Shown here piece by piece: positions 3,001 through 49,036 of a DNA stretch of 64,000 nucleotides. Position numbers and translations under genes: made by a program. Location: IMG/VR virus record IMGVR_UViG_3300045988_119033; one strand, given 5' to 3'. This DNA comes from a virus. Numbering within the stretch: position 1 is the first letter of the stretch; each line of letters begins with the position of its first letter. The notes beneath the pieces were generated by a model that saw only the letters and a program-made list of their open reading frames with translations, was not told the origin of the DNA and ran no database searches.

Positions 3001-4932
3001 CCTGTTTTTTATAATAGCGCTTTTGGTATTGGAGACATGATACCATTCCCATACATGGATTACAGAAATGTAGGGTATCCAAGATATTTTGTTAATTATG
3101 ATACTGGAGAAGACGCTCTTGAGACAATAGATAACGAACGTTTCAATAGCTGGACATCATCTAATAAAGGAAGATACGCTTTTTATCCAAACAGGAAGAG
3201 CTTATACGAATTAAATGGTGACACATCCGGCAGGTACGTTAATGGAAGATTTTATACATGGTTCTATGGCATTCCTCAGTTCCTTGTAGAGTCTGAAATA
3301 AATTGTAATTTCAGATTAGAGGGCCCTCAGCCTTATGAATTATTCTATCCAAAAGTAGGAGATTTTGTTTGGTGGACACAAGAAAAGAACGTATCTATCC
3401 ATAGGGATAATGATTACAAGATAAGTCCTATCTATTCGTCGAGGATGACACTAACACCAAATGTATTGCCGGCAACGTACGAACGACGTTTTTATGACTG
3501 TGCTTACCAACGTCCTAATGGTGTTATATGGAGTAGGGCTGATGTATCTGAAAACAGTCAAACAGATCCGTGGCTGACGTACAAGCCTATGGACTATCAT
3601 GAGTTCCCAACCAACAACGGGAAGCTTATTCACATGAAGCGTATTGAATCCGATCAGATTCTTGTTAGATTCGAGGATCAGGTTTCGCTCCATAACGCCA
3701 TAGACGTAATCAAGGAGCGTACCTCCCCAGGGCGGGCTGAGATGGGCACCGGCGGTCTGTTCGCGTCCCGGCCTCTGGAGTACAACACGACCGACCTTGG
3801 CTATTCTGGAACCCAGAGTACTGAAATAATTAGTTCAGAATTTGGTCACTTCTGGGTGGATACTAAAAGAGCACAGGTGTTCATGACCGATCCAAATGGA
3901 CGCAATCTTAAGGAACTTAGTGTAGGTATCAGACATTGGCTTAAGCGTCATCTTCCGTTTAAGATCCTTAGATACGGAATAACTAATATCTTAACCGGTA
4001 CAGAGATGACAGAAGAAGATACAGACAATAAATTTATCGGTCTTGGTCTGTCTCTTGGATGGGATAACAGGTATAAGAGGGTACTTATCACGAAAAAAGA
4101 TTATATACCTGTTAAGAACCCGGCATATTATAAATATGATGGTGGAAGGTTCTTGTACAATGAAACAGAGGTGCTGTCAAACGATAAGAAAATATCTTTA
4201 AAAGACGAACAGTATTTCAAGGACGTGTCGTTCACTATCGGATATTCGTGTCTGAAACAAGAATGGATTTCTTATTATTCATTCTGTCCTGACTATTATA
4301 TAGAACAGCAACAATATTTCCAGACAGGAATAAACTTCCCGGCATCGGATGAAGAAGGTGGCTTATGGAGCCATTTGCTGACGAATAAGAGCTTTCAGAC
4401 ATTTTACGGAGCAACATATCCATTTATATTAGAAGTGCCGATAAAAGAGAAATATAACGGTTCTACGCTGGCTTCTGTTGAGTATGAGCTTGATGCGAGG
4501 AAATACGTCGATGATGTGAATTACACTCTTGACAGGAAAGTAGGTTTAGATACGATAACTATCTACAACGACACAAACAACTCAGGCGAAATTCATCTTG
4601 TTCCAGAAAAAAAGAATAATTTAGCGCAGCGTATATCGTATCCGAAGATCGTAGGCGACCATACTGAGATTCTGGATACCGAGGTATATAGAAGACATAA
4701 GTTAAACGACTTCTTTAATAGGGTTGACGATGACCGATCTGAAACACCTATCTGGATCAAGGACGATAACGATATAAATAAGTCGGTTAATCCTGATGCT
4801 CTTAATTTTAGACGGTCATGGCTTGATAGGTTAAGAGGAAGTTGGATGCTGATGAGGATAAAGAAAGTAATTAGCAACCGGAAGATTATATTCCAGTGGT
4901 TGATTTCTGAAGATAAGATTAAGAATAGATGA
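58..4932 (+). CDS. Giant virion-associated protein (1624 aa), possibly a tail fibre/spike-like structural protein; function not recognisable
   Basis: Uninterrupted 4.9 kb ORF in the plus-strand structural block, followed immediately by a Gly-rich fibre-like gene. No motif recognised. Confidence 0.45.
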   Translation: MEHVSTDYLYTTGGENQNKYSVLFNYDTMDSLSEWMDKAFFGDNAGDVSGDGERHLCSEFYPYLQPGSILKTVSDAIYVLDTMPCTCGCYIENYCSDPTVSRSDYNNFQNNNYILGGYILHIDGWSQKINGKGNWRAGRSTSTVINDQYRSKNGPKYCIEQFWPDASNKLQDMIYKNSDTGIPETDWEFEGYANNATFENPTGDKLNIGFASEFVVRKFVRNVMTNARFIRINRPEEWDIEGYKEENKVLYLEALGKIDGIMDAVSTNYVRVSFWKDIETWNPLGTIPVDFDRPEHASGHSVIINIARPAWGTIDDKFFKETIKQNYFYVTIESPVVAVPWIMTFRKIQFCEYKNKDTPDEEEEPSKKPSRAILGVSFVTGKTIYPYIFGIREKEVNKIDLSVDSITLRSTVLFASKCQTCGDRPINCKPRPYKYGDFAYWESSEKYPANFELYDSSRMKIDTGRSYDDPKKTEAYSNIMNKLTEYYGAPLSDKNGLSYFKGHSYGGIDTSTIFCQQPIRHYRFPDNKHIPFMNSDERGYDIASEIYPVGIMVDENTIQVFLDFAVDSGLITQQQRDTIVGYELYRGDRRLNRSVVASGLAYDMLRYIGDDGNVNIYPNYPYNDLSQDQYNYTSGKRDEFISHPFDKGGNVWYSFCSPDIYFNKPELPNEVCIDGFQRGMSVGSFVPVEDHPKWTILGPAAYTMAASLAAVESSATIAAMIAEELQIRAQSGYIGGSAGLTGGGFLTNLSVAMLFSSMVSTISQTLAKGPILYGKYRYDWLNTFINNGPRRNHAWYYTSVGLYNSMIGITDQDKYERNFARGLSSVKYIKSGVYPMMDASMSSKWGTGRNDNEGRFLFVNNIDRESSLFLSFGDPGEKGDGKSKYLLEYPNYVYNYDSSRIDDSVIAGSDVVAGRTFEQSKTVSYICSPYMRLMRYRPDQYGQIEDIKWISIGGCGFFTNEKKLMFGGDTVITRFSLKRKFPVFYNSAFGIGDMIPFPYMDYRNVGYPRYFVNYDTGEDALETIDNERFNSWTSSNKGRYAFYPNRKSLYELNGDTSGRYVNGRFYTWFYGIPQFLVESEINCNFRLEGPQPYELFYPKVGDFVWWTQEKNVSIHRDNDYKISPIYSSRMTLTPNVLPATYERRFYDCAYQRPNGVIWSRADVSENSQTDPWLTYKPMDYHEFPTNNGKLIHMKRIESDQILVRFEDQVSLHNAIDVIKERTSPGRAEMGTGGLFASRPLEYNTTDLGYSGTQSTEIISSEFGHFWVDTKRAQVFMTDPNGRNLKELSVGIRHWLKRHLPFKILRYGITNILTGTEMTEEDTDNKFIGLGLSLGWDNRYKRVLITKKDYIPVKNPAYYKYDGGRFLYNETEVLSNDKKISLKDEQYFKDVSFTIGYSCLKQEWISYYSFCPDYYIEQQQYFQTGINFPASDEEGGLWSHLLTNKSFQTFYGATYPFILEVPIKEKYNGSTLASVEYELDARKYVDDVNYTLDRKVGLDTITIYNDTNNSGEIHLVPEKKNNLAQRISYPKIVGDHTEILDTEVYRRHKLNDFFNRVDDDRSETPIWIKDDNDINKSVNPDALNFRRSWLDRLRGSWMLMRIKKVISNRKIIFQWLISEDKIKNR

Positions 4933-4933
4933 C

Positions 4934-5827
4934 ATGAGAAGAAGGTTTGAGGCATATAAACAACAACCAAAATTGGTGAAATTAATGGGTAATCTAGGGG
5001 TAGATCAGAATTATACGATAGAAAAAGGATATCGTTATTTTGATTTACTTGTAGTTGGAGGTGGCGGCGGAGGTGGCACAAACAGTGGTGGCGGTGGAGC
5101 TTCTGGAACAATAGCATTTGCTCGTAATATAAAAATCTCTTTGCTACCGAAAACTTTGACTTGTAAAATTGCAAAGCCTGTAAATGCACAAACTGATGGG
5201 GATAGTACAACTCTTGAAATAAACGGGGATACGATAATCTGTGCTGGAGGGCAAAGAGGTAATAGTGAGGGAGCAGGAGGGCTTGGTAATGGCTCTAAAA
5301 TACCAGACAGTATATATACCATTCTATCAAAGTTGGTAGAAAACCCATCTTCCGATATCGCGATTTGTAATAATGGTGGAGGCTCTCCTGGTTATTGGAA
5401 TGGTTCTTACGGTTATGCTGGTGGTTCAGGCGCATCTATGTCGGGTAATGGAAATTCATCGTCAGGAATGACCGGTGGAAACAGTGTAAGTAATGCAGAT
5501 GGTATGGGCGGTTATAAAGGTGGAAATAGTCAATCTTATCAAGGTGGTACAGGATATAAATATAACAATGTACTTATTCCTATTGGCCTATTTGGAGGAG
5601 GTGGAACTTCGGGGAAAGGCTCGAACGGATCTGGTTCGGATGGATCTGGAGCAGGTGGTGGGGCGGCAGGTCTTGAATCAGGTGGAAATGGTGGAAATTC
5701 AGGGTCAAGCAATCCTACGAATGGCGGAAATGGTGGCATTGGAGCTGGTGGCGGAGGAGGTGGTGGTCTGTCACGTAAAGGAGGAAAAGGAGGACAGGGT
5801 ATAATTTGTTTATATTATCATAATTGA
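4934..5827 (+). CDS. Glycine-rich collagen-like fibre protein with N-terminal MRRRFE motif
   Basis: Poly-Gly/GGxGG runs throughout. The start codon sits 1 nt after the upstream stop. The N-terminus MRRRFE is shared with the ORF at 42978 and is near-identical to the ORF at 25412. Antisense Pro-rich ORFs here are mirror artefacts. Confidence 0.5.
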   Translation: MRRRFEAYKQQPKLVKLMGNLGVDQNYTIEKGYRYFDLLVVGGGGGGGTNSGGGGASGTIAFARNIKISLLPKTLTCKIAKPVNAQTDGDSTTLEINGDTIICAGGQRGNSEGAGGLGNGSKIPDSIYTILSKLVENPSSDIAICNNGGGSPGYWNGSYGYAGGSGASMSGNGNSSSGMTGGNSVSNADGMGGYKGGNSQSYQGGTGYKYNNVLIPIGLFGGGGTSGKGSNGSGSDGSGAGGGAAGLESGGNGGNSGSSNPTNGGNGGIGAGGGGGGGLSRKGGKGGQGIICLYYHN

Positions 5828-5863
5828 TTTATTTATTCAAATTAATGTATTTTTAAATATTTT

Positions 5864-5896
5864 AATTTGATAATTAGATTTTAGTCTTTATATTTG
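5864..5896 (+). promoter_or_regulatory. Candidate Bacteroidetes-type promoter (-33 TTTG / -7 TATATTTG) driving the tRNA-like array
   Basis: TTTG at 5864-5867 and TATATTTG at 5889-5896, about 21 nt apart. This matches the Bacteroidetes sigma-A consensus TTTG-N19-21-TAnnTTTG. Confidence 0.4.
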
Positions 5897-5927
5897 CATC
5901 GTAATCAAGAGAGATTATGATATAAGA

Positions 5928-6017
5928 CAGTGGTGATGGAAGGTGATACTTCGGTTTGTGTCATAGGTTCGAGTCCTATATTTTTCATGCAAGAAAAATT
6001 AGATCAGTTGGTAGATC
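5928..6017 (+). ncRNA. tRNA-like element with permuted-looking order: T-arm plus 3' acceptor-like strand, then 5' acceptor-like strand plus D-arm
   Basis: T-arm ATAGG-TTCGAGT-CCTAT at 5963-5979, followed by ATTTTTC at 5980-5986. After a 6-nt spacer, GAAAAAT at 5993-5999 is its exact complement, then TA, then D-arm GATC-AGTTGGTA-GATC at 6002-6017. No anticodon arm found. Confidence 0.3.
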
Positions 6018-6099
6018 AAAACTTCCTTTCATATCAAAACACATTCCAGGTTTTCCCTGTTTTAATAAAATATACAGATGGTGAGGAGTTCGGTTACTT

Positions 6100-6172
6100 C
6101 GAAAATTAGCATAGTGGATAATGCGGTATTCTGTAAAAATACTTTTCATTGGTTCGAATCCAATATTTTCAT
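6100..6172 (+). tRNA. tRNA, anticodon GUA (Tyr-type), class I cloverleaf with a C1:A72 mismatch
   Basis: Hand-folded. Acceptor CGAAAAT/ATTTTCA (6 of 7 pairs); D-stem GCAT/ATGC with loop AGTGGATA; anticodon stem GTATT/AATAC with loop CTGTAAA; 5-nt variable loop; T-arm ATTGG-TTCGAAT-CCAAT; discriminator T. Confidence 0.55.
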
Positions 6173-6247
6173 TTTAATCATCCGGCTCCGTTTTTCCTCT
6201 GTTTGAAATATATAAAAACTAATGAGTGGTGATGGGGTTAGTTACTT

Positions 6248-6320
6248 CGAATTTAGCTCAGATGGATAGAGCGATACTCTTTTAAAGTATAGGTCAATGG
6301 TTCAAATCCATTATTTCATT
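6248..6320 (+). ncRNA. tRNA-like element (anticodon-loop UUU, Lys-type) with a degenerate acceptor stem; possible Y-RNA-like module
   Basis: D-arm GCTC-AGATGGATA-GAGC; anticodon stem ATACT/AGTAT with loop CTTTTAA; T-arm AATGG-TTCAAAT-CCATT. The acceptor strands do not pair (at best 4 of 7). A possible closing helix joins AATGAG(T)GG at 6221-6229 with CCCTCATT at 6343-6350. Confidence 0.4.
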
Positions 6321-6378
6321 GTTTACACTAACTTCAGCTTTTCCCTCATTGAGTATTCATTTTGATATATTTTTTTCA

Positions 6379-6409
6379 AGCAGTGGTAGTAATATCACTG
6401 CTTTTTTTG
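6379..6409 (+). terminator. Rho-independent terminator ending the tRNA-like array
   Basis: Stem AGCAGTG/CACTGCT with a 10-nt loop, followed by TTTTTTTGT. Confidence 0.6.
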
Positions 6410-6434
6410 TATAACACTTTAAAGAAAACAACAA

Positions 6435-8069
6435 ATGGGAAAGTTTAACAAAAAGGATGAAGGTGTTAAACCTACGATCGTGAATCACATGGGAGAGAAG
6501 GCGTATAAGCCTAACGCAGAAGAAGAGTTGGTATCTACGGTAATGACTACCATGTTATCTGATTCTTATTATGAGAAAGAAAAAGATAAAGTAGAAAGAA
6601 TTAAGAGCCTTATGGATCAAATAGATCCGTATTTCGCAGCACAAACAGCATTGTATGTCAGGAAAGAAGGAAAGCTTAGGTCAGTAACGCATCTTATGGC
6701 TTCTGTCCTTGCCAGCAAAGCATCGGGTAAGGAATGGGCTTCAAGGTTCTATAACAAGATCGTTATGCGTCCTGATGATATGAGCGAAATCCTTGGCTGT
6801 TATGCGGCTCTTAACGACAAAAATCCAAAGAAGTTAAGAGGAATATCCAGCGCTATTAAGAAAGGATTTAAGACGGCTTTGGAAGGTCTTGATCCGTATC
6901 GGATTGATAAGTATAAGATGGACAGTAGGGTCATTACTATGGTTGACTTAGTAAACTTATTTCACCCTAAAGGCAATCAGGCTAACAAAACGGCTTTCCA
7001 GTACCTTATAGAAGGTAGGTCTTTGTCTGGATTATACGAAAGCAAGATTCTTGAAAAAGAAATGTCTAAAGCCGGACAGGATAAGAAAGATAATAAGGAA
7101 AAGAAAGAAGCTTTAGGTGACGCTATTCGGGACGTGGTTTCTAATGTAAAAGGTATGCCTATTTTTAATATGGTTCGTAACCTTGTAAACATAATCAAAT
7201 ACGCACCTGATCAAATAGATGAAGTTTGTAGGCAGCTTACAATAGAAGAGAAGGTGCTTAATTCGAAGATGCTTCCTTTCCGTTTTGCTTCAGCTTTCAA
7301 AGAGGTTGAAAATATGGGCACTGATGGTTCCGATAACGATATTGTATTTGAGTCGGATAAAAAACGAGCTAAATTAACAGCGCGTAATAAATATAAGATT
7401 TTAGATGCGTTGGAGAAAGCCATAACCATCTCCTGCAAGAACTTGCCGGTATTGGAGGGGCGGTCGGCTATCCTGATTGACCACTCTGGCTCTGTACGTG
7501 GAGATATGGGAGGATCTTCTGAAGTGTCTGCCTTTAGCAAAACAAATACGGCTGTCATTGGTAACTTGTTTGGCTGTATGATTGCTTCTGTGCTTCCTGA
7601 CGTATTTATTGGTATGTTTGGTGACAAACTTATCAATTACGAATATGATAGAAGCAGAGGTGTTTTATGGAACAACAAAAAATCTTTTACTGCCGGAGGA
7701 GAATGCGGTGGTGCTACTGAAAACGGTCTTTTTGCATTCTTGGAAAAGTGCATCAAAGATAAGATAAAAGTAGATAACTTGTACGTTATTTCAGATATGC
7801 AGATAGGAGATGGCGAATCTATTGTATGGGAAAAAAGTTCCAATTATGAATATGGTAAATTCGCTGAACTTTTGAAAAAGTTCAAGAAAGTGAATCCAAA
7901 TTGCAAAATCGTTTCTATTTCTATTCAAGGATATGGAAGTGAGATGTTTTACAGAGGATCTAATATCTTGAACATAGCTGGCTGGTCAGAATCTATCTTC
8001 GATGTTATTAACAGCAAGTTCTGCGGATATAAGAATATGATTGAGGAAATTAAGAAAATAAAAATATAA
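6435..8069 (+). CDS. rsr: Ro60/Rsr orthologue (TROVE domain plus C-terminal vWA domain with a DxSGS MIDAS motif)
   Basis: 544 aa, the size of Ro60. The N-terminal TROVE-like stretch (SDSYYEKEK ... FAAQTALYVRKEG) aligns by eye to Ro60. The C-terminal vWA region carries ILIDHSGSV (DxSGS), AGGECG and LYVISDMQ in the order of the Ro60 vWA domain. Confidence 0.7.
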   Translation: MGKFNKKDEGVKPTIVNHMGEKAYKPNAEEELVSTVMTTMLSDSYYEKEKDKVERIKSLMDQIDPYFAAQTALYVRKEGKLRSVTHLMASVLASKASGKEWASRFYNKIVMRPDDMSEILGCYAALNDKNPKKLRGISSAIKKGFKTALEGLDPYRIDKYKMDSRVITMVDLVNLFHPKGNQANKTAFQYLIEGRSLSGLYESKILEKEMSKAGQDKKDNKEKKEALGDAIRDVVSNVKGMPIFNMVRNLVNIIKYAPDQIDEVCRQLTIEEKVLNSKMLPFRFASAFKEVENMGTDGSDNDIVFESDKKRAKLTARNKYKILDALEKAITISCKNLPVLEGRSAILIDHSGSVRGDMGGSSEVSAFSKTNTAVIGNLFGCMIASVLPDVFIGMFGDKLINYEYDRSRGVLWNNKKSFTAGGECGGATENGLFAFLEKCIKDKIKVDNLYVISDMQIGDGESIVWEKSSNYEYGKFAELLKKFKKVNPNCKIVSISIQGYGSEMFYRGSNILNIAGWSESIFDVINSKFCGYKNMIEEIKKIKI

Positions 8070-42847: not shown

Positions 42848-42977
42848 ATGAAAAAAAATGCTATCTTGCAAAAAATAAGGTGATTATATACAACTTTACA
42901 CCATATTTTATAGATACTATACATATAATAAAGACAATAAGTGATTTTGTTGCACCTGATACTTACTTAAAAGGAAT

Positions 42978-43712
42978 ATGAGAAGAAGATTTGAAACATC
43001 ATTAAAAATATATGAATATCAAATAGTTAGCAACTGTATAGGGGGGGGGGTAATCATTGATGATGAAATAGTCGGTACCGTTCCACAAAGTGGTGTATTT
43101 ACCTTTCTTTCTATAAAACAACGTCTGGGTTCTATAAGTATCCAAGGAGGAGTCCCATCTAATACAAAAGAGACTATCAGCGAACAAACAGAATCTACGA
43201 AAGAGCTTGTAGAGAAGGATGACATTAAACTTATTATAGGTAGAGTAGAATCTCCTTCTTTAGGTTTTTTGATACGTCTTTATTTGCCTGACCAGTTTAC
43301 AGTGAGAGAACAAGAAAAGAAATATGTAACATATCGTGAAATACTATATACTGCTCCTGGTAAAAAATACAATGTAAACAATGATAATCCTATTGTAATG
43401 AATTACACCAGTGAGCAACATGAGTACCCAGATACGATAATAGGAGATCCTGTAGATAAGGTCTACGAAACTGGCTCAGATACATCATGGAGTTGCGAAC
43501 TTGTTGAAACTAATATCGAACCAGAGCCTTCTCCTACATCTTTTCAATATTTGACCCTAACATCAATAGTCAGACCTATTATAACCAGGTTGGGTCAAGG
43601 CACTTTATATGCCACCTATTCCGCTCATATAAAACTTGAATTATATTCTAAAACACATGGAAGTATAGGTGAATATGTGGTAACATCGGAGACAGTTACG
43701 TTCGACAATTAA
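42978..43712 (+). CDS. Hypothetical protein (244 aa) with an MRRRFE N-terminus and an in-frame G10 homopolymer
   Basis: The N-terminus is identical to ORF 4934. G10 at 43041-43050 encodes GGG within codons 22-24. Last plus-strand gene before the convergent junction. Confidence 0.5.
   Translation: MRRRFETSLKIYEYQIVSNCIGGGVIIDDEIVGTVPQSGVFTFLSIKQRLGSISIQGGVPSNTKETISEQTESTKELVEKDDIKLIIGRVESPSLGFLIRLYLPDQFTVREQEKKYVTYREILYTAPGKKYNVNNDNPIVMNYTSEQHEYPDTIIGDPVDKVYETGSDTSWSCELVETNIEPEPSPTSFQYLTLTSIVRPIITRLGQGTLYATYSAHIKLELYSKTHGSIGEYVVTSETVTFDN
43041..43050 (+). repeat. Homopolymeric G10 tract inside the coding sequence
   Basis: Ten consecutive G in a roughly 35% GC genome. Confidence 0.8.
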
Positions 43713-43717
43713 AACAA

Positions 43718-43756
43718 TTCTGCATATAGACTCTATACTATCGTCTATATGCAGAA
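43718..43756. terminator. Bidirectional terminator at the junction of the convergent plus and minus modules
   Basis: Perfect 14-bp inverted repeat TTCTGCATATAGAC/GTCTATATGCAGAA with an 11-nt loop. TTGTTTT follows on the minus strand. Confidence 0.65.
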
Positions 43757-43770
43757 TTGCATATAACTTC

Positions 43771-43989
43771 CTAAAGTAATAGCGGATCTATATATGCATT
43801 ACCTCGTAATACGGATAAAGAATCATTTTTGTCTTTAATTATTAATGCTACACCTCTACCTTTAAATATAAATTCTTTTTGTGTATCATTATTTAGAAAT
43901 TGCTTAAATTCTTCTATTTCTTTATCAGAAGGTCTAAACTCTTTTGCAAATACATAAACTTTTTGTTCGAATGTTAACTTTTCGTTCAT
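43771..43989 (-). CDS. Small hypothetical protein (72 aa from the revised start MNEKLTFEQK...)
   Basis: The revised start at 43987-43989 sits directly downstream (minus sense) of a conserved 25-nt element also found before ORF 44494-44649. Confidence 0.4.
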   Translation of the reverse strand: MNEKLTFEQKVYVFAKEFRPSDKEIEEFKQFLNNDTQKEFIFKGRGVALIIKDKNDSLSVLRGNAYIDPLLL

Positions 43990-44020
43990 AACTCTAATTT
44001 TTAAAAGTGAATAATTAATT
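43990..44020 (-). promoter_or_regulatory. Conserved upstream element (plus-strand sequence TAAT TTTTAAAAGTGAATAATTAATT), copy 1
   Basis: Identical over about 24 nt to 44650-44680. It ends 6 to 7 nt before the ATG of a small minus-strand gene. Confidence 0.45.
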
Positions 44021-44311
44021 AAGGTTGCCAAAAGAAAGGAAAATAAGTTCTTTAATACAAGCTTTTGGTATGGTCATTATACCAGAAGCTTGTTCTAATG
44101 TATTGGAATTACCAACAGCATAATGACCAGCTACAGATATAGATCTTTCATTTTCATGTACAACAATACCATAGCTCTCTATTTCTGATATATCTGTTTC
44201 GTAATCCTCCAGATCTACCCATGTTCTTTCTGATAGGTTGGAATCTATCCACTTAACTAATACCCGCTTGTTTAAAAGCGATTCTTTTCTTTTATTTCTA
44301 CTCTTTTTCAT
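44015..44311 (-). CDS. Hypothetical protein (98 aa)
   Basis: ORF. Its stop lies inside conserved element copy 1. Confidence 0.4.
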   Translation of the reverse strand: MKKSRNKRKESLLNKRVLVKWIDSNLSERTWVDLEDYETDISEIESYGIVVHENERSISVAGHYAVGNSNTLEQASGIMTIPKACIKELIFLSFGNLN

Positions 44312-44344
44312 AACTTGTTATATTGATTTTTTAGTAAACGAAAA

Positions 44345-44374
44345 GAGATTGTGCCAGCATTTTGACACAATCTC
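44345..44374 (-). terminator. Hairpin GAGATTGTG/CACAATCTC, followed on the minus strand by a T-rich run
   Basis: 9-bp stem with a 12-nt loop. TTTTCGTTT follows in the minus sense. Confidence 0.45.
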
Positions 44375-44493
44375 AATTATATGAGAATAATACTAAGAAA
44401 AGGTGTAAAGTGGTATATAATTACCATTTAGAATAAATGAGATTTTAAACATCCCTAACGCTTATCCTTCTCAAAACATTTCATTGGATATCG

Positions 44494-44649
44494 CTATGAT
44501 GTTGCTTTCTTTGCGATTAGATCATTGATAGAATCAAGCAGTTTTCGGTCGTGAGGAGAATCGTAATTTTTAAGTTTTTCCTTACAAATTTCTCTCATTT
44601 TGATAAGACGATTCAATTCTTGTTGTCCATTTTCTTTTGATGTTTTCAT
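44494..44649 (-). CDS. Small hypothetical protein (51 aa), not in the supplied ORF track
   Basis: Manual translation of the minus strand: MKTSKENGQQELNRLIKMREICKEKLKNYDSPHDRKLLDSINDLIAKKATS. Preceded by conserved element copy 2. Confidence 0.35.
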   Translation of the reverse strand: MKTSKENGQQELNRLIKMREICKEKLKNYDSPHDRKLLDSINDLIAKKATS

Positions 44650-44680
44650 AATTGTAACTTTTAAAAGTGAATAATTAATT
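44650..44680 (-). promoter_or_regulatory. Conserved upstream element, copy 2
   Basis: AATTGTAACTTTTAAAAGTGAATAATTAATT, to be compared with copy 1. Confidence 0.45.
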
Positions 44681-44683
44681 GAT

Positions 44684-45163
44684 TTATAAAAAATGTACCC
44701 TATCCGTAAAAACTAAACCAACGCCATTCATAATATATCCTACTACAGGAGCTTTGTCAAATTCCTCCTTCGTAGCCCAAGTAGCATTATCAGGCATCAG
44801 ATCCTTAAATGCATCCGAAACATCACCCTGACACCAGCAATTGTTTGATGCAACAATACCCTTCCCTTCGATATTGACATACATTTTTCTTCCACCGCAT
44901 CCAAGGCTATTCCATCCTCTTGGTACGTTTTCTACCATAGGCTTAAGCACCCAGCTTTCACCGTCTATCCTAATCCATCCAGGATCGTCTTTGTGCTTGT
45001 CGTACATATTTTGCCAAAAAGAGCATTCGTAGCACCATCCCTTGTCTTCCATGATAGTTCTTATCTCACACCTTTCAAATCCATCTGCATCCATCGTGTG
45101 CGGAGAATGAGGCTGGTGAGGGGTGCCACATTTTGGGCATACGAGTTTTAAATTCTTTTCCAT
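44684..45163 (-). CDS. Cys/Trp-rich hypothetical protein (159 aa)
   Basis: ORF with multiple CxxC pairs (CPKCG, CYEC, CWCQ). Confidence 0.45.
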   Translation of the reverse strand: MEKNLKLVCPKCGTPHQPHSPHTMDADGFERCEIRTIMEDKGWCYECSFWQNMYDKHKDDPGWIRIDGESWVLKPMVENVPRGWNSLGCGGRKMYVNIEGKGIVASNNCWCQGDVSDAFKDLMPDNATWATKEEFDKAPVVGYIMNGVGLVFTDRVHFL

Positions 45164-45175
45164 ATTATTTCACTT

Positions 45176-46520
45176 TTACGATCTTTAACAAATCCCCTGC
45201 TTTTAAGCAGGGGATCAATGATTCTTTTATTCATATATGTATTTTTAAATAATTGATTCTGATATATGCCAAAAAGTTATTATTATATTTGTATCATAAA
45301 TGTGGTTAAAAATGATTTCATACAAATATAACATATATTATTCAAAGAAAACGAAGTATCTTGTCAAGATACTTCGCGAATGCTGTTTTGTATGGAATCA
45401 TGCTTTAGCTCTACAACGTAGGTATTACAAACTGTTTGGGAAATATATCTCAGTTGGCAAGATGCAAAAACATTTCTCTAAAAGAATTAAGAGAAATCTT
45501 CTTCATTCCCAAACAACACAAGAAATTATTCAAAGGTTAGATTCAGCATACAATCGCTTCTTCAAGAAGTTGGCTAAACGACCTCCTAAGTTTAAATCAC
45601 CGGAGAAATTCAATTCTTTTGTATTCAAACAAGGAGGGTTTACCCTGAATGGAAATTGTCTAACAATTAACAAAGGAAAGAAACATTTTAAGTTTTCATA
45701 CAGTAGACCTTATGAAGGTAATGTTAAACAAATTAGAATAGTTAGAGAAACCTGTTCCCGTTTTAGTTTGATTATAGTTACAGACCATAATCCTGTAAAC
45801 TCTTATAGAAAGACACATGATGGTGCATCTATCGGATTGGATTTTGGTCTGAAAACTTATCTAACTAAAAGTGATGGTAGCAAAATCGATTCTCCATTAT
45901 TCCTCAAACAATATCAAAACAAGATTAGAAAACTAAACAAACGGTTTTCTAATGCAAAGAAAGGATCCAATAATAAAAGAAGGAGACTGTTTGAACTACA
46001 ACAAGCGTATCGTAAAATAAACAATCTTCGATCAGACTTTCAATGGAAATTAGCTCATGATTTGTGTAAACAATATGATTATATTTTTATTGAAGATCTA
46101 AACATTGAAGGAATGAAACGTTTGTGGGGAAAGAAAGTTTCTGATCTCAGTCATTCTTCTTTTATTGACAAACTTACATATATTGCTTCAAAGTATGGAG
46201 TGATAGTACATAAGATTGACAAATGGTATCCTTCTTCCAAAACTTGTGAATGTGGCTGCATTAATAAAGGACTGTCGTTACGCGACCGCACGTGGGTATG
46301 CCCGTCGTGCGGCGCGGTCAACGACCGTGATGTTCTTGCATCCCGTAATATACTTCGGAAGGGCATTTCCGAATTGGAGAGTAAGAGTAATTCCAACGAT
46401 AGTAATGTCGGGGTTTCTTGCGTTTGTATCCAAGAATCCCATTTGCTTTAGCGATGGGAGTATGTCAAGATCTTAATAGAATCTCCGATATTGTATTCCC
46501 CTTGGTATCCAACGAATTTT
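45176..46520 (+). mobile_element. Putative IS200/IS605-family element carrying tnpB only (IS1341-like); boundaries approximate
   Basis: TTAC at 45176-45179 followed 12 nt later by the subterminal hairpin ATCCCCTGC-TTTTAA-GCAGGGGAT (45192-45215). The 3' 100 nt of tnpB is GC-rich and hairpin-forming. No tnpA in the window. Confidence 0.45.
45300..46451 (+). CDS. tnpB: TnpB (IS200/IS605 OrfB-family RNA-guided endonuclease)
   Basis: The N-terminus YKYNIYYSKKTKYLVKILRECCFVWNHALALQRRYYKLFGKYIS matches the TnpB consensus. The C-terminus has a RuvC-like IFIEDLNIEG and a CxxC...CxxC zinc finger, CECGCINKG...WVCPSCGAVNDRDVLASRNI. Confidence 0.85.
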   Translation: MWLKMISYKYNIYYSKKTKYLVKILRECCFVWNHALALQRRYYKLFGKYISVGKMQKHFSKRIKRNLLHSQTTQEIIQRLDSAYNRFFKKLAKRPPKFKSPEKFNSFVFKQGGFTLNGNCLTINKGKKHFKFSYSRPYEGNVKQIRIVRETCSRFSLIIVTDHNPVNSYRKTHDGASIGLDFGLKTYLTKSDGSKIDSPLFLKQYQNKIRKLNKRFSNAKKGSNNKRRRLFELQQAYRKINNLRSDFQWKLAHDLCKQYDYIFIEDLNIEGMKRLWGKKVSDLSHSSFIDKLTYIASKYGVIVHKIDKWYPSSKTCECGCINKGLSLRDRTWVCPSCGAVNDRDVLASRNILRKGISELESKSNSNDSNVGVSCVCIQESHLL

Positions 46521-46687
46521 ATAAATCTATTACTGTTAAATATTGAAAATCTTCCGTCTTCACCATAATACATTATACATCCACCATCTAAAGGACGTAG
46601 ATCATATATAACCCATCCGTCATTAACCCGAATATCATGCGAACATGATGATAACACAAGTGCCATCAATAAAACAAAATACCTCAT
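46448..46687 (-). CDS. Small lipoprotein (79 aa; signal peptide with lipobox LSSC)
   Basis: MRYFVLLMALVLSSCSHD. Convergent with tnpB, overlapping its stop by 4 nt. Confidence 0.5.
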   Translation of the reverse strand: MRYFVLLMALVLSSCSHDIRVNDGWVIYDLRPLDGGCIMYYGEDGRFSIFNSNRFIKFVGYQGEYNIGDSIKILTYSHR

Positions 46688-46694
46688 ATTATTT

Positions 46695-46886
46695 TCAGCA
46701 TAAAAATTTGTAACCTGGTTTTACGGCCTCTGCTTCTTCTCTCGTATCAAACATTAAGGTAGTGACAGCTCCTATGCCTTCACAAACGTAAGATACTTTC
46801 ACCCACCACCTAAAAATCCCAGAGCCGTAATCATCATAGTACGGCTCAGAAAGAACCTCTTCTACGTACCCATCTAAGTAATTCAT
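46695..46886 (-). CDS. Small hypothetical protein (63 aa)
   Basis: ORF in the minus operon. Confidence 0.35.
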   Translation of the reverse strand: MNYLDGYVEEVLSEPYYDDYGSGIFRWWVKVSYVCEGIGAVTTLMFDTREEAEAVKPGYKFLC

Positions 46887-47599
46887 GATCGTTCCTCCTT
46901 GTTTTTAGGTTCTGCCTCTTCGAGTATGCTGATCACCTTGTCAACAATATCCGAATCAGACATTTTCTCAATAAAAACATCCATTGCCTTAGTTATGTCA
47001 TTGGCTTCTTTTTCTTCAAGAGCTATTTCTCCACCGGTAATAGCATCAGATAATAATGTAGATAAGTGTCTTATCTTATCAATGCTCATAAACGTAAATG
47101 GATTACCACCCAAGCCTCCACCCATTTCTTTCATGATCTGATATCCACCTGAGATAAGTCTGCCTGATGTCGTGGCCAAGGAGGATACGATTAGGGACAG
47201 TACCGCCGCTTCCGTCCGCTCCTCGGACACACCCCTCGACCACACGGCTGCCCTTATAGCGCCGGCCAGATCGTCTATGTATGGCATGAGGCAATCTTCC
47301 ATCGCTTGTGTTATATCAGCTATAACCTCACTACGCTCTTTATTTATGTAGTAGATAGAAGCATTGTACCTCTTTATCTCTTTGTCCATATCATTTAAAA
47401 GACGCTTGATATTGTGCTTATACATAGGACTGGTTTTAATTACTTCCTTTAGCTTAAGAATGTAATTATAAGCCTGGTCGTTTACGAACAACGTCATGGT
47501 CTCAACCGTTGAATGAAGTGTGTTAAGACTGTTAAGAATCTTATCGAAATTGTTTATCAAATAAGCTCTTCTGGCTTTTGCTGCGTAGTTAATCATCAC
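46883..47599 (-). CDS. Hypothetical protein (238 aa)
   Basis: ORF; no domain recognised. Confidence 0.5.
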   Translation of the reverse strand: MMINYAAKARRAYLINNFDKILNSLNTLHSTVETMTLFVNDQAYNYILKLKEVIKTSPMYKHNIKRLLNDMDKEIKRYNASIYYINKERSEVIADITQAMEDCLMPYIDDLAGAIRAAVWSRGVSEERTEAAVLSLIVSSLATTSGRLISGGYQIMKEMGGGLGGNPFTFMSIDKIRHLSTLLSDAITGGEIALEEKEANDITKAMDVFIEKMSDSDIVDKVISILEEAEPKNKEERS

Positions 47600-47873
47600 A
47601 TTCGAATTTTAGATTTTCAAGTTCATTCAATTGTTTCTTAGTCAATTCGATCAGGTACGTTCTCCGTTCCTCTGCATGTTTTAAAGCTTCTTCTTTGCTC
47701 TCAAAAGCATCCCTTCCTATTTCATAAGGAGTGATCCTATCAGGAATGTCGGCTAACAAAAGACCACCATACTCTTCTATTTTAGCTTTTACTTTTCTTA
47801 TTATACCGTCTCTCATGCACGCATCTGTAATCCATATAAACCTATCACATTCTTCTAATTCCCTTTCGTACAA
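47589..47873 (-). CDS. Hypothetical protein (94 aa)
   Basis: ORF. Confidence 0.4.
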   Translation of the reverse strand: MYERELEECDRFIWITDACMRDGIIRKVKAKIEEYGGLLLADIPDRITPYEIGRDAFESKEEALKHAEERRTYLIELTKKQLNELENLKFECDD

Positions 47874-47927
47874 TTCATACCATTCTGGTTTAGGAAATCT
47901 TAATGTAAATCTAATCTCGGTATCTTT

Positions 47928-48119
47928 TTATAAGACATTAATATCATACGCCTCCGGCCACAGCTCTTTTATACTGTTCTCGTCTTCAGCATATGCTACC
48001 AATACAAATGAATTACTGGATTCTGCACTACACCAATATGGATATTTTATAGGCCATTTGACTGGACGGTAATCATTGTTACAGTCATCCTTTCTAATGT
48101 AAAATCTTGCTTTAATCAT
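47928..48119 (-). CDS. Small hypothetical protein (63 aa)
   Basis: ORF. Confidence 0.3.
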   Translation of the reverse strand: MIKARFYIRKDDCNNDYRPVKWPIKYPYWCSAESSNSFVLVAYAEDENSIKELWPEAYDINVL

Positions 48120-48120
48120 G

Positions 48121-48429
48121 TTATTCTACTTTTTTGATTTCGCTTAAATCGTCTTCATGCACCAAATAAGATCCTCTTCCCGGTCTTCCTTCTTTATTAA
48201 CTTCCTGGATTGTAAATATAACTGTTCCAGGACTCATGATTTGCACGCTCTTAAAAAAACCAACAAGAGGCTCTTTCGAACGTTTGTAAAAAACGCTCAC
48301 TTTATCTCCCTTCTTTAACCCATAAACAGAATCGAAATACTCTTTTTTGATTCTATCAATATTGTCTTTATGATTTCTTATAGCACGAAGCTCTTTTTCC
48401 CATAAATAATTTAGCTGTTCTTTTGTCAT
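48121..48429 (-). CDS. Hypothetical protein (102 aa)
   Basis: ORF coupled to its downstream neighbour. Confidence 0.4.
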   Translation of the reverse strand: MTKEQLNYLWEKELRAIRNHKDNIDRIKKEYFDSVYGLKKGDKVSVFYKRSKEPLVGFFKSVQIMSPGTVIFTIQEVNKEGRPGRGSYLVHEDDLSEIKKVE

Positions 48430-48992
48430 TTCTTTTCCTCCTTACTTAAAGGCATTAACCCTTTTCCGTGCTTGTCATACCACAGCATAGCTATACAGTT
48501 CCATGCACATTGTGCAAGATGAAAACATCCTGTATCGGAATCCACTCTTTCCCCTTTCATGTATTCCATTAGGTGTCTAAACATTGCAGCTCGATACCGT
48601 TCAAATCCGTCGTCAAGATTCTGCCAATTATTAGACCCATATTTCTTGGCTCCGGCATGATAGACTCTTACAATGTCTTCAATCTCTTCCATCGGAAGCA
48701 AATCCCATCGTAGTTTGTCGTCAATGATGTCATTTTTCACTGATTTTATTGAAGTACTTTTTTCTGGATCTCCTATACGAATAAGTTCCATAATGTCTGT
48801 TTCTATAATAATTGCGTCTCCATTGTAATAAACTTCAGCAAACTTGTCATTTTCTTTTATGTTTGTTGCTGAAGTCACTAAAGATCCTTTGTATATTATA
48901 GTGTTTTTATTTATCTTATCATCTTTCAGTGTTTGAAAAATAGATCCTTTTGGATAAAGGATGTTTTTAGTATTATTGTCCATTTTTTCCAT
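48426..48992 (-). CDS. Protein resembling the N-terminal domain of phage dATP/dGTP diphosphohydrolases (tentative)
   Basis: VYHAGAKKYGSNNW ... HLAQCAWNCIAMLWY is reminiscent of the GAxKY...NW signature. Memory-based, not verified. Confidence 0.3.
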   Translation of the reverse strand: MEKMDNNTKNILYPKGSIFQTLKDDKINKNTIIYKGSLVTSATNIKENDKFAEVYYNGDAIIIETDIMELIRIGDPEKSTSIKSVKNDIIDDKLRWDLLPMEEIEDIVRVYHAGAKKYGSNNWQNLDDGFERYRAAMFRHLMEYMKGERVDSDTGCFHLAQCAWNCIAMLWYDKHGKGLMPLSKEEKK

Positions 48993-49036
48993 CGTTTTAT
49001 CGTTGTTTTAATCAATTAGTATAATGATATAGTCCA

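Follow-up and report, generated by a model that had tools for sequence, protein, structure and literature searches.

The ends of the insertion sequence (IS) IS608 carry a left cleavage site (CL; TTAC) and a right cleavage site (CR; TCAA), each pairing with a guide tetranucleotide (GL, AAAG; GR, GAAT) that lies 5' of a subterminal hairpin (PMC3201880, PMC5934647). TnpB "transposase" genes have been reported in epsilon crAss-like phages, among them some Epsilonunovirus genomes (Viruses 2024; PMC11054128); that study annotated genes only, and ends, omega RNA, target sites, and tnpA-bearing relatives were not defined there. The element described here lies in a 64,000-nucleotide (nt) viral sequence, IMG/VR record IMGVR_UViG_3300045988_119033 (hereafter the window, meaning this whole 64-kb stretch), and is very probably a non-autonomous IS200/IS605-family insertion sequence with IS608-type ends, derived from an IS605-type element by a 359-bp deletion that removed tnpA. 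It is an ordinary IS605-family TnpB element and changes no concept. What makes it useful is how cleanly this natural case can be read: public data yield its ends and guide, the allele without it, the progenitor form that still has tnpA, and dozens of sibling insertions. A preliminary description of this DNA, made from the sequence alone, considered a phage-borne TnpB notable, a point weakened by the 2024 report and by the presence of TnpB relatives in 422 phage records (tblastn).

The flanks of the element in the window are 92-94% identical to crAssE-Sib (OR575929), an epsilon crAss-like phage from the human gut that belongs to the proposed genus Epsilonunovirus; there the corresponding locus reads ...CACTTTTAT/GATCTTAATAGAATCTCC... 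(a slash marks the junction) with no insert between. The window junctions are ...CACTTTTAC/GATCTTTAAC... on the left (45179/45180) and ...GAGTATGTCAA/GATCTTAATAGAATCTCC... on the right (46468/46469). A scan of IMG/VR finds the uninterrupted site (TTTTAY/GATCTTAATAGAATCTCC) in 70 related phage contigs, 50 with TTAC (TTAC/GATCTTAATAG) and 20 with TTAT, and at 16 empty sites the sequence is identical over 46 nt to the pre-insertion sequence reconstructed by joining the flanks of the window element. Among the 71 genomes, the occupied right junction is unique to the contig from which the window comes (IMG/VR 3300045988_106885, 86 kb), and the closest empty genomes are ∼98% identical across a 2-kb right flank. 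No bases are gained or lost between empty and occupied junctions, and a repeat search at the element ends finds neither terminal inverted repeats nor a target-site duplication. With 70 empty contigs against one occupied and no target duplication, this is thus a lineage-specific 1,289-bp insertion 3' of TTAC; the preliminary description named as refuting the opposite pattern, in which related phages have the gene at this locus with no IS ends. The preliminary description had proposed a recent insertion with TTAC (45176-45179) at its left end, and both points are borne out by the empty sites, the TTAC junction also being the flank of every copy with this type of left end; the right end, placed there at 46520, is at 46468. 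A degenerate target duplication or homing scar was considered at the left end, the first 18 nt of which match the target at 13 of 18 positions, including GATCTT; because the same left end is present at 8 other sites with unrelated flanks, the resemblance is due to chance and the sequence belongs to the element.

Copies elsewhere fix the same boundaries independently of the empty site. TnpB relatives are encoded at 326 loci in IMG/VR. The best 80 (88-100% protein identity) are all on viral contigs, mostly of 75-160 kb (range, 5.9-159 kb), and some contigs have two copies. Copies at different sites resemble one another from GATCTTTAAC through to GTATGTCAA. The 82 loci compared represent 39 distinct sites, at which copies end ...GGAGTATGTCAA and the next 20 nt are site specific, so that the right end is fixed to the base; the sequence downstream of GTCAA is different at each of the 39. 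One copy (L081) has an extra GTCAA, a 5-nt duplication of the end, ahead of the flank seen in L064, L065, L079, and L082. Two further stretches that match the motif of the right end (L006, 289-528, and L077, 4322-4561) fail to align and are attributed to chance.

The ends conform to the IS608 code. The left hairpin, noted in the preliminary description, folds as DNA at -11 kcal/mol (z=-5.4, with 0 of 200 shuffles as good) and is conserved in copies with the same left end and in the autonomous relative L072. At the right end, GAAT is directly 5' of the hairpin in nearly all copies, most copies end in TCAA, which closes the window element (last base 46468), and cleavage falls 10 nt 3' of the hairpin foot, matching IS608. 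The left ends fall into types, among them A and B: type A, that of the window element, is TTAC/GATCTTTAAC-AAAG-CCCCTGCTTTTAAGCAGGGG..., with TTAC flanking all 9 insertion sites, and type B is TTAT/GATTATTTAACCAAC-AAAA-CCACC...GGTGG, with TTAT flanking all 25. Across these 34 sites the fourth bases of the flank and of GL change together, AAAG accompanying TTAC at 7 and AAAA accompanying TTAT at 24. This switch from C/G to T/A in flank and left guide is the covariation predicted by the mechanism; it shows that a Y1 transposase made the sites, and it repeats in nature the IS608 retargeting rule established in vitro.

The origin of the element is evident from its left end. Two sibling elements (L072 and L003) have a tnpA gene upstream of and divergent from tnpB (tblastn), and both tnpA products match Pfam Y1_Tnp (E of ∼1e-39). 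The L072 element is 1,648 bp long, against 1,289 bp in the window, has the left end TTAC/GATCTTTAACAAAG..., and codes for a TnpB 91% identical to the window TnpB. The window left end aligns with the L072 left end and the C-terminal part of its tnpA, then skips 359 bp to a block proximal to the tnpB promoter; the remnant translates as ISESII-stop-KYIYE-stop, compared with ISESVIKKYIDDQKKY-stop in L072. Because the tnpA 3' remnant, the 359-bp deletion, and full-length siblings are all present, the element is a deletion derivative of an IS605-type element and not a separate lineage. The preliminary description of a solo, IS1341-like tnpB element is thus apt for the gene content, tnpB being alone, yet the element is not primordially tnpB only and is demonstrably a tnpA-deletion derivative of an IS605-type element.

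The single gene of the element, in an open reading frame (ORF) at 45300-46451, was correctly recognized in the preliminary description as tnpB. The NCBIfam model guided_TnpB (RNA-guided endonuclease TnpB family) covers the whole of its product (E=1.7e-72; 244.9 bits, with the cutoff at 100), which also matches Pfam OrfB_IS605 and the Cas12f1-like_TNB zinc-ribbon domain and aligns over its full length with the ISDra2 TnpB structures 8BF8, 8EXA, and 8H1J (E of ∼3e-30). Among solved structures, the top hit is to an "AI-designed RNA-guided nuclease" (9YYG; E=1.7e-38), which scores above the natural ISDra2 TnpB. Inactivating substitutions in RuvC were looked for, and the triad is intact: D181 (GLDFG), E265 (IEDLN), and D343 (NDRDV), numbered from the ATG at 45300, align with the catalytic motifs of ISDra2 TnpB (residues D191, E278, and D361). 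The CxxC...CxxC zinc finger is also intact. The IS607_TnpB signature is below its cutoff (119 bits against 350), and the partner transposase of the relatives is a Y1 enzyme, not the serine recombinase of the IS607 type. Relatives conserve the ATG at 45312, not that at 45300; the 379-codon ORF from this start is intact in 72 of 81 family copies, the other 9 having premature stops or lost start codons, and the family-wide ratio of nonsynonymous to synonymous divergence (dN/dS) is ∼0.12 (35 copies at different sites), indicating purifying selection.

These same features bear on whether the protein is instead a nuclease-dead, TldR-type regulator or a miniature type V effector of a CRISPR (clustered regularly interspaced short palindromic repeats) system, a reading that is effectively refuted. 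A weak secondary NCBIfam match to type V C2c8 (E=6e-15) is far below cutoff, and TnpB is known beside CRISPR-like arrays in some phages (PMC11437467), but the protein keeps its catalytic D-E-D triad and its zinc finger, there is no CRISPR or other repeat array within 43000-49000, and the locus has transposon ends and a presence/absence polymorphism.

Expression of tnpB likely depends on a promoter within the element, as judged from motif content. The Bacteroidota -7 promoter motif, TAnnTTTG, was reportedly defined by Bayley et al. in 2000, and TATATTTG is its only plus-strand occurrence in the element; the block in which it lies, TATATTTGT, is conserved in three relatives (L002, L003, and L072). 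A second TAnnTTTG is on the minus strand at 45323-45330, pointing leftward within the first tnpB codons, and, speculatively, might drive transcription out of the left end toward the displaced phage gene at 44684..45163.

A conserved RNA structure with strong covariation spans the 3' part of tnpB and the element's right end, as expected for an omega RNA, which the preliminary description had suggested here. An alignment of the last 240 nt of 18 relatives (55-100% TnpB identity), including copies from Alistipes and Cryptobacteroides metagenome-assembled genomes and a Parabacteroides phage, yields 51 pairs with RNAalifold, 29 of them with compensatory double changes; 93.4% of alignment cells are paired, compared with 38-50% in slid controls, which have 10-14 double-change pairs, and the observed pairing values are reached by none of 500 shuffles. 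Helix H8 (46437-46459), with 6 compensatory pairs, doubles as the right-end hairpin and holds the tnpB stop codon in its loop. Over the last 59 codons (321-379; same 35 copies), synonymous divergence (dS) drops from 0.42 to 0.21, and this halving fits a second constraint from an overlapping RNA. The preliminary description regarded the last 100 nt of tnpB as GC rich and hairpin prone; its CCGCACG/CGTGCGG hairpin is real (46282-46315; DNA fold, -17.6 kcal/mol; z=-4.5), whereas the GC-rich zone is at 46250-46400, 50-200 nt before the stop, with a GC fraction of 0.52-0.56 against ∼0.3 elsewhere. With 88% of cells paired and 4 compensatory pairs, this hairpin has less covariation support than H4-H8; it possibly forms the omega RNA's 5' stem. 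The whole would form a structured RNA of ∼190 nt, presumably expressed.

Coordinates of the element and of associated features in the window
Feature	Coordinates	Strand	Description
Target tetranucleotide TTAC	45176-45179	+	Target and left cleavage site (CL); presumed target-adjacent motif (TAM) of TnpB; outside the element
Whole element	45180-46468	+	1,289 bp; defined by empty-site comparison and by copies at other sites
Left guide (GL)	45190..45193	+	AAAT here, AAAG in most type A copies; 4 nt 5' of the hairpin foot
Left subterminal hairpin (IPL)	45192..45215	+	ATCCCCTGC-TTTTAA-GCAGGGGAT
Dead tnpA 3' remnant	45215..45270	-	∼55 nt (∼18 codons), now interrupted by stops and a frameshift; the 359-bp deletion junction comes next
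Candidate tnpB promoter	45284-45291	+	TATATTTG; matches the Bacteroidota -7 motif TAnnTTTG; 21 nt upstream of the conserved ATG
tnpB coding sequence	45312..46451	+	379 amino acids (aa) from the conserved ATG; reading frame extends upstream to the ATG at 45300
GC-rich hairpin (helices H1 and H2)	46282..46315	+	Within the zinc-finger coding region; possibly the omega RNA 5' stem
Core omega RNA scaffold	46354..46459	+	RNAalifold covariation; helices H4-H8
Helix H4	46354-61/46366-73
Helix H5	46374-78/46429-33
Helix H6	46381-87/46415-21
Helix H7	46393-401/46406-13
Helix H8	46437-46/46451-59
Right-end transposase signals	46434..46468	+	GR GAAT, 46434-46437; right subterminal hairpin (IPR) CCCAT...ATGGG, 46438-46458; CR TCAA, 46465-46468
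3' flank, presumed omega RNA guide	46469..46488	+	GATCTTAATAGAATCTCCGA; equals the sequence after TTAC in unoccupied genomes
Lipoprotein-like phage ORF	46448..46687	-	79 aa; signal peptide ...LSSC; its 3' end holds the element

By analogy with published TnpB biology, the guide would extend from 46469 to ∼46488 and TTAC would be the TAM; 50 of the empty sites consist of TTAC followed by the presumed guide sequence. We infer RNA expression, TAM identity, cleavage, homing, and the TnpA source in the following scheme. A Y1 (HUH) TnpA supplied in trans, whether by the host or by an autonomous sibling that a co-infecting phage carries, would move the element as single-stranded DNA and insert it 3' of TTAC with no duplication. 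The 379-aa TnpB would be expressed from the Bacteroidota-type promoter in the left end, and the omega RNA, with a scaffold that takes in the right end and the final ∼100-190 nt of tnpB, would acquire its guide by transcription of the adjoining phage DNA. TnpB and omega RNA together would then cut element-free copies of the locus having TTAC and a guide match, whether these arise by excision or are present in a co-infecting sibling phage, and the element would be restored or spread when an occupied genome served as the template for recombinational repair.

The last of these steps could in principle be the main route of spread, with the element passing between co-infecting phages as an RNA-guided homing endonuclease, TnpA not being needed, and competitors being penalized, as by the T4 Seg and Mob endonucleases. 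We consider this possible but doubtful. The family numbers more than 300 IMG/VR loci at 39 or more sites, the 50 sibling genomes (of 70) with TTAC match the presumed guide perfectly over 20 nt or more, the window in turn has empty exact targets for at least five sibling elements, tnpA is lacking in 80 of the 82 copies and yet TnpB is under purifying selection, and the close lineage is found in viral contigs only, relatives in bacterial genomes being only 55-63% identical. TnpA-independent, TnpB-dependent spread on plasmids and homing into co-infecting phages have been discussed (PMC13565253). However, the 39 sites have the flank/guide covariation of TnpA, so that new sites are made by transposition, and the window insertion is a singleton among the 71 genomes, with no visible sweep. 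Same-site copies are 93-99% identical, compared with 89-99% for their near flanks, as with vertical descent, a comparison confounded by far flanks that are mosaic and rich in insertions and deletions. A role for this TnpB lineage as a phage-resident, RNA-guided homing and competition system acting on co-infecting epsilon crAss-like phages is correspondingly tentative; if true, these phages would offer a natural population for measuring TnpA-independent "non-restorative" homing, so far shown for plasmids and proposed for phages, and siblings with perfect targets for each other's guides are a possible test of TnpB homing and competition.

Several observations weigh against an IS605-derived element moved by TnpA and armed with an omega RNA. 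A tblastn search with ISHp608 OrfA finds no tnpA within the element or in the rest of the 64-kb window, as the preliminary description had noted for the element, and only 2 of the 82 family copies have one. The nearest TnpB proteins are 92-93% identical, and no donor copy is among those sampled. TTAC- and TTAT-flanked elements do not form separate TnpB clades, so TnpB may recognize TTAY, or the ends may recombine. The TAM is assigned solely from the transposase target. An Rfam scan of 44000-48000 (E of ≤10) gives chance matches only and no omega RNA family, and the single-sequence RNA fold is unexceptional (z=-1.3). Finally, the window GL is AAAT, not AAAG, and has one mismatch to the C of TTAC; TnpA-mediated excision of the window copy may therefore be impaired, and its further mobility may be reduced.

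This mismatch, with the lack of tnpA in the window, would suit a stranded relic that is immobile, has an intact TnpB merely through its youth, and has no ongoing function. Relics would also account for the 9 of 81 family copies with disrupted tnpB and for a copy shared at the same site by six contigs (L008, L012, L022, L030, L033, and L055), which has a degenerate left hairpin and TCAT for TCAA with tnpB mostly intact and is probably immobilized and vertically inherited. Nonetheless, a relic is improbable for the window copy: the family dN/dS and the conserved RNA pairing argue for a selected TnpB/omega RNA function, and AAAT is next to TTAC at one other site (L067/L068), so that either AAAT copies have inserted on two or more occasions or the mismatch is tolerated. 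The preferred reading thus remains a non-autonomous IS200/IS605-family insertion sequence, mobilized in trans.

The sibling insertions have additional features of interest. The commonest insertion is shared by 15 contigs (including L013), in which the left end abuts the equivalent of window position 4930 and the right end abuts that of 7953; beside it ∼3 kb are missing (window 4931-7952, corresponding to the ORF at 4934..5827 and most of that at 6435..8069); a deletion associated with the IS, or the replacement of a variable region, could explain this. Empty alleles of this site have TTAC in 114 instances and TTAT in 5, compared with TTAT in the occupied ones, a comparison that is not clean, as the occupied left flank differs by the missing ∼3 kb. 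In the window, unoccupied plus-strand sites at 7953, 8336, 8465, 28379, 33334, and 35106 each follow a TTAT or TTAC and differ from sibling-element guides by at most 1 nt; they include perfect targets for at least five sibling elements. Together with the window element (46469), all seven have the same orientation, which may reflect a single-strand transposase inserting into the lagging-strand template.

The preliminary description placed the element between convergent structural and replication modules. The plus-strand structural genes stop at 43712 and the blocks converge at 43715-43770, so that the element is ∼1.4 kb within the minus-strand block, where, as first described, tnpB is the only plus-strand gene (the sole non-overlapping plus-strand ORF in 43771-64000, the rest being on the minus strand). 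A perfect 17-bp inverted repeat with an 11-nt loop (43715-43759) sits exactly at the convergence of the blocks and is probably a bidirectional terminator. The window has no similarity to the corresponding crAssE-Sib region across the module junction (42878-44698), and the crAssE-Sib DNA (cytosine-5)-methyltransferase gene is absent (window 48135-48285 against L001 5165-6443). Two small genes on the minus strand have at their starts the copies of a 36-nt direct repeat (92% identical; 43985-44020 and 44645-44680), perhaps a phage promoter or regulatory motif present more than once. The neighboring ORFs have no Pfam matches except for a dATP/dGTP diphosphohydrolase at 48426-48992.

The lipoprotein gene said to abut the element is indeed adjacent, but the insertion is inside its 3' end. 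The last 8 codons are replaced by 6 from the element right end, changing ...IKVKQYGK-stop to ...LTYSHR-stop, and the C terminus reads ...GDSIKILTYSHR-stop in the window, compared with ...GDSIKIIKVKQYGK-stop in crAssE-Sib. In crAssE-Sib this gene overlaps the start of the next, and the insertion parts the two in the window. It has thus both altered the C terminus of a phage gene product and split a translationally coupled gene pair, and may carry a fitness cost.

Among known systems, the T-even phage homing endonucleases SegF, SegB, and Mob offer a functional analogy, as phage nuclease genes able to cut the empty allele of a co-infecting relative; they recognize their targets by protein, whereas an RNA guide and transposon ends would serve here, and homing is by analogy only. 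Of the two TnpB genes in the crAssE-Sib genome itself, one shares 78% protein identity and the same right end with the window copy but sits at another locus. With the IS1341 group of ISfinder the element shares its tnpB-only content and a trans-supplied transposase, although here the loss of tnpA is directly visible.

Comparison with the ISDra2 TnpB-omega RNA system shows homology over the full length of the protein, with the RuvC D-E-D residues and C-terminal zinc finger in common and, likewise, a structured RNA over the tnpB 3' end and right end, which here would read its guide from the flank. The RNA sequences are unrelated, the ISDra2 target and TAM is TTGAT as opposed to TTAC, and the hosts differ, Deinococcus compared with a phage of Bacteroidales here; the compact 379-aa TnpB and its ∼190-nt RNA are a candidate miniature editor from a Bacteroidales setting. 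The closest parallel in the ends is with IS608 (ISHp608) of Helicobacter pylori, which has the same CL TTAC, GL AAAG (the family consensus), GR GAAT, and CR TCAA, as well as subterminal hairpins, right cleavage 10 nt 3' of the hairpin foot, duplication-free insertion 3' of a tetranucleotide, and tnpB on the right. ISHp608 OrfB of a Helicobacter phage is ∼38% identical to the window TnpB. The two differ in that tnpA is deleted here and, in L072 and L003, is divergent as in IS605, where that of IS608 is co-directional with tnpB; in the distance from CL to the hairpin foot (14 nt against 19 nt); and in the AAAT left guide of the window copy.

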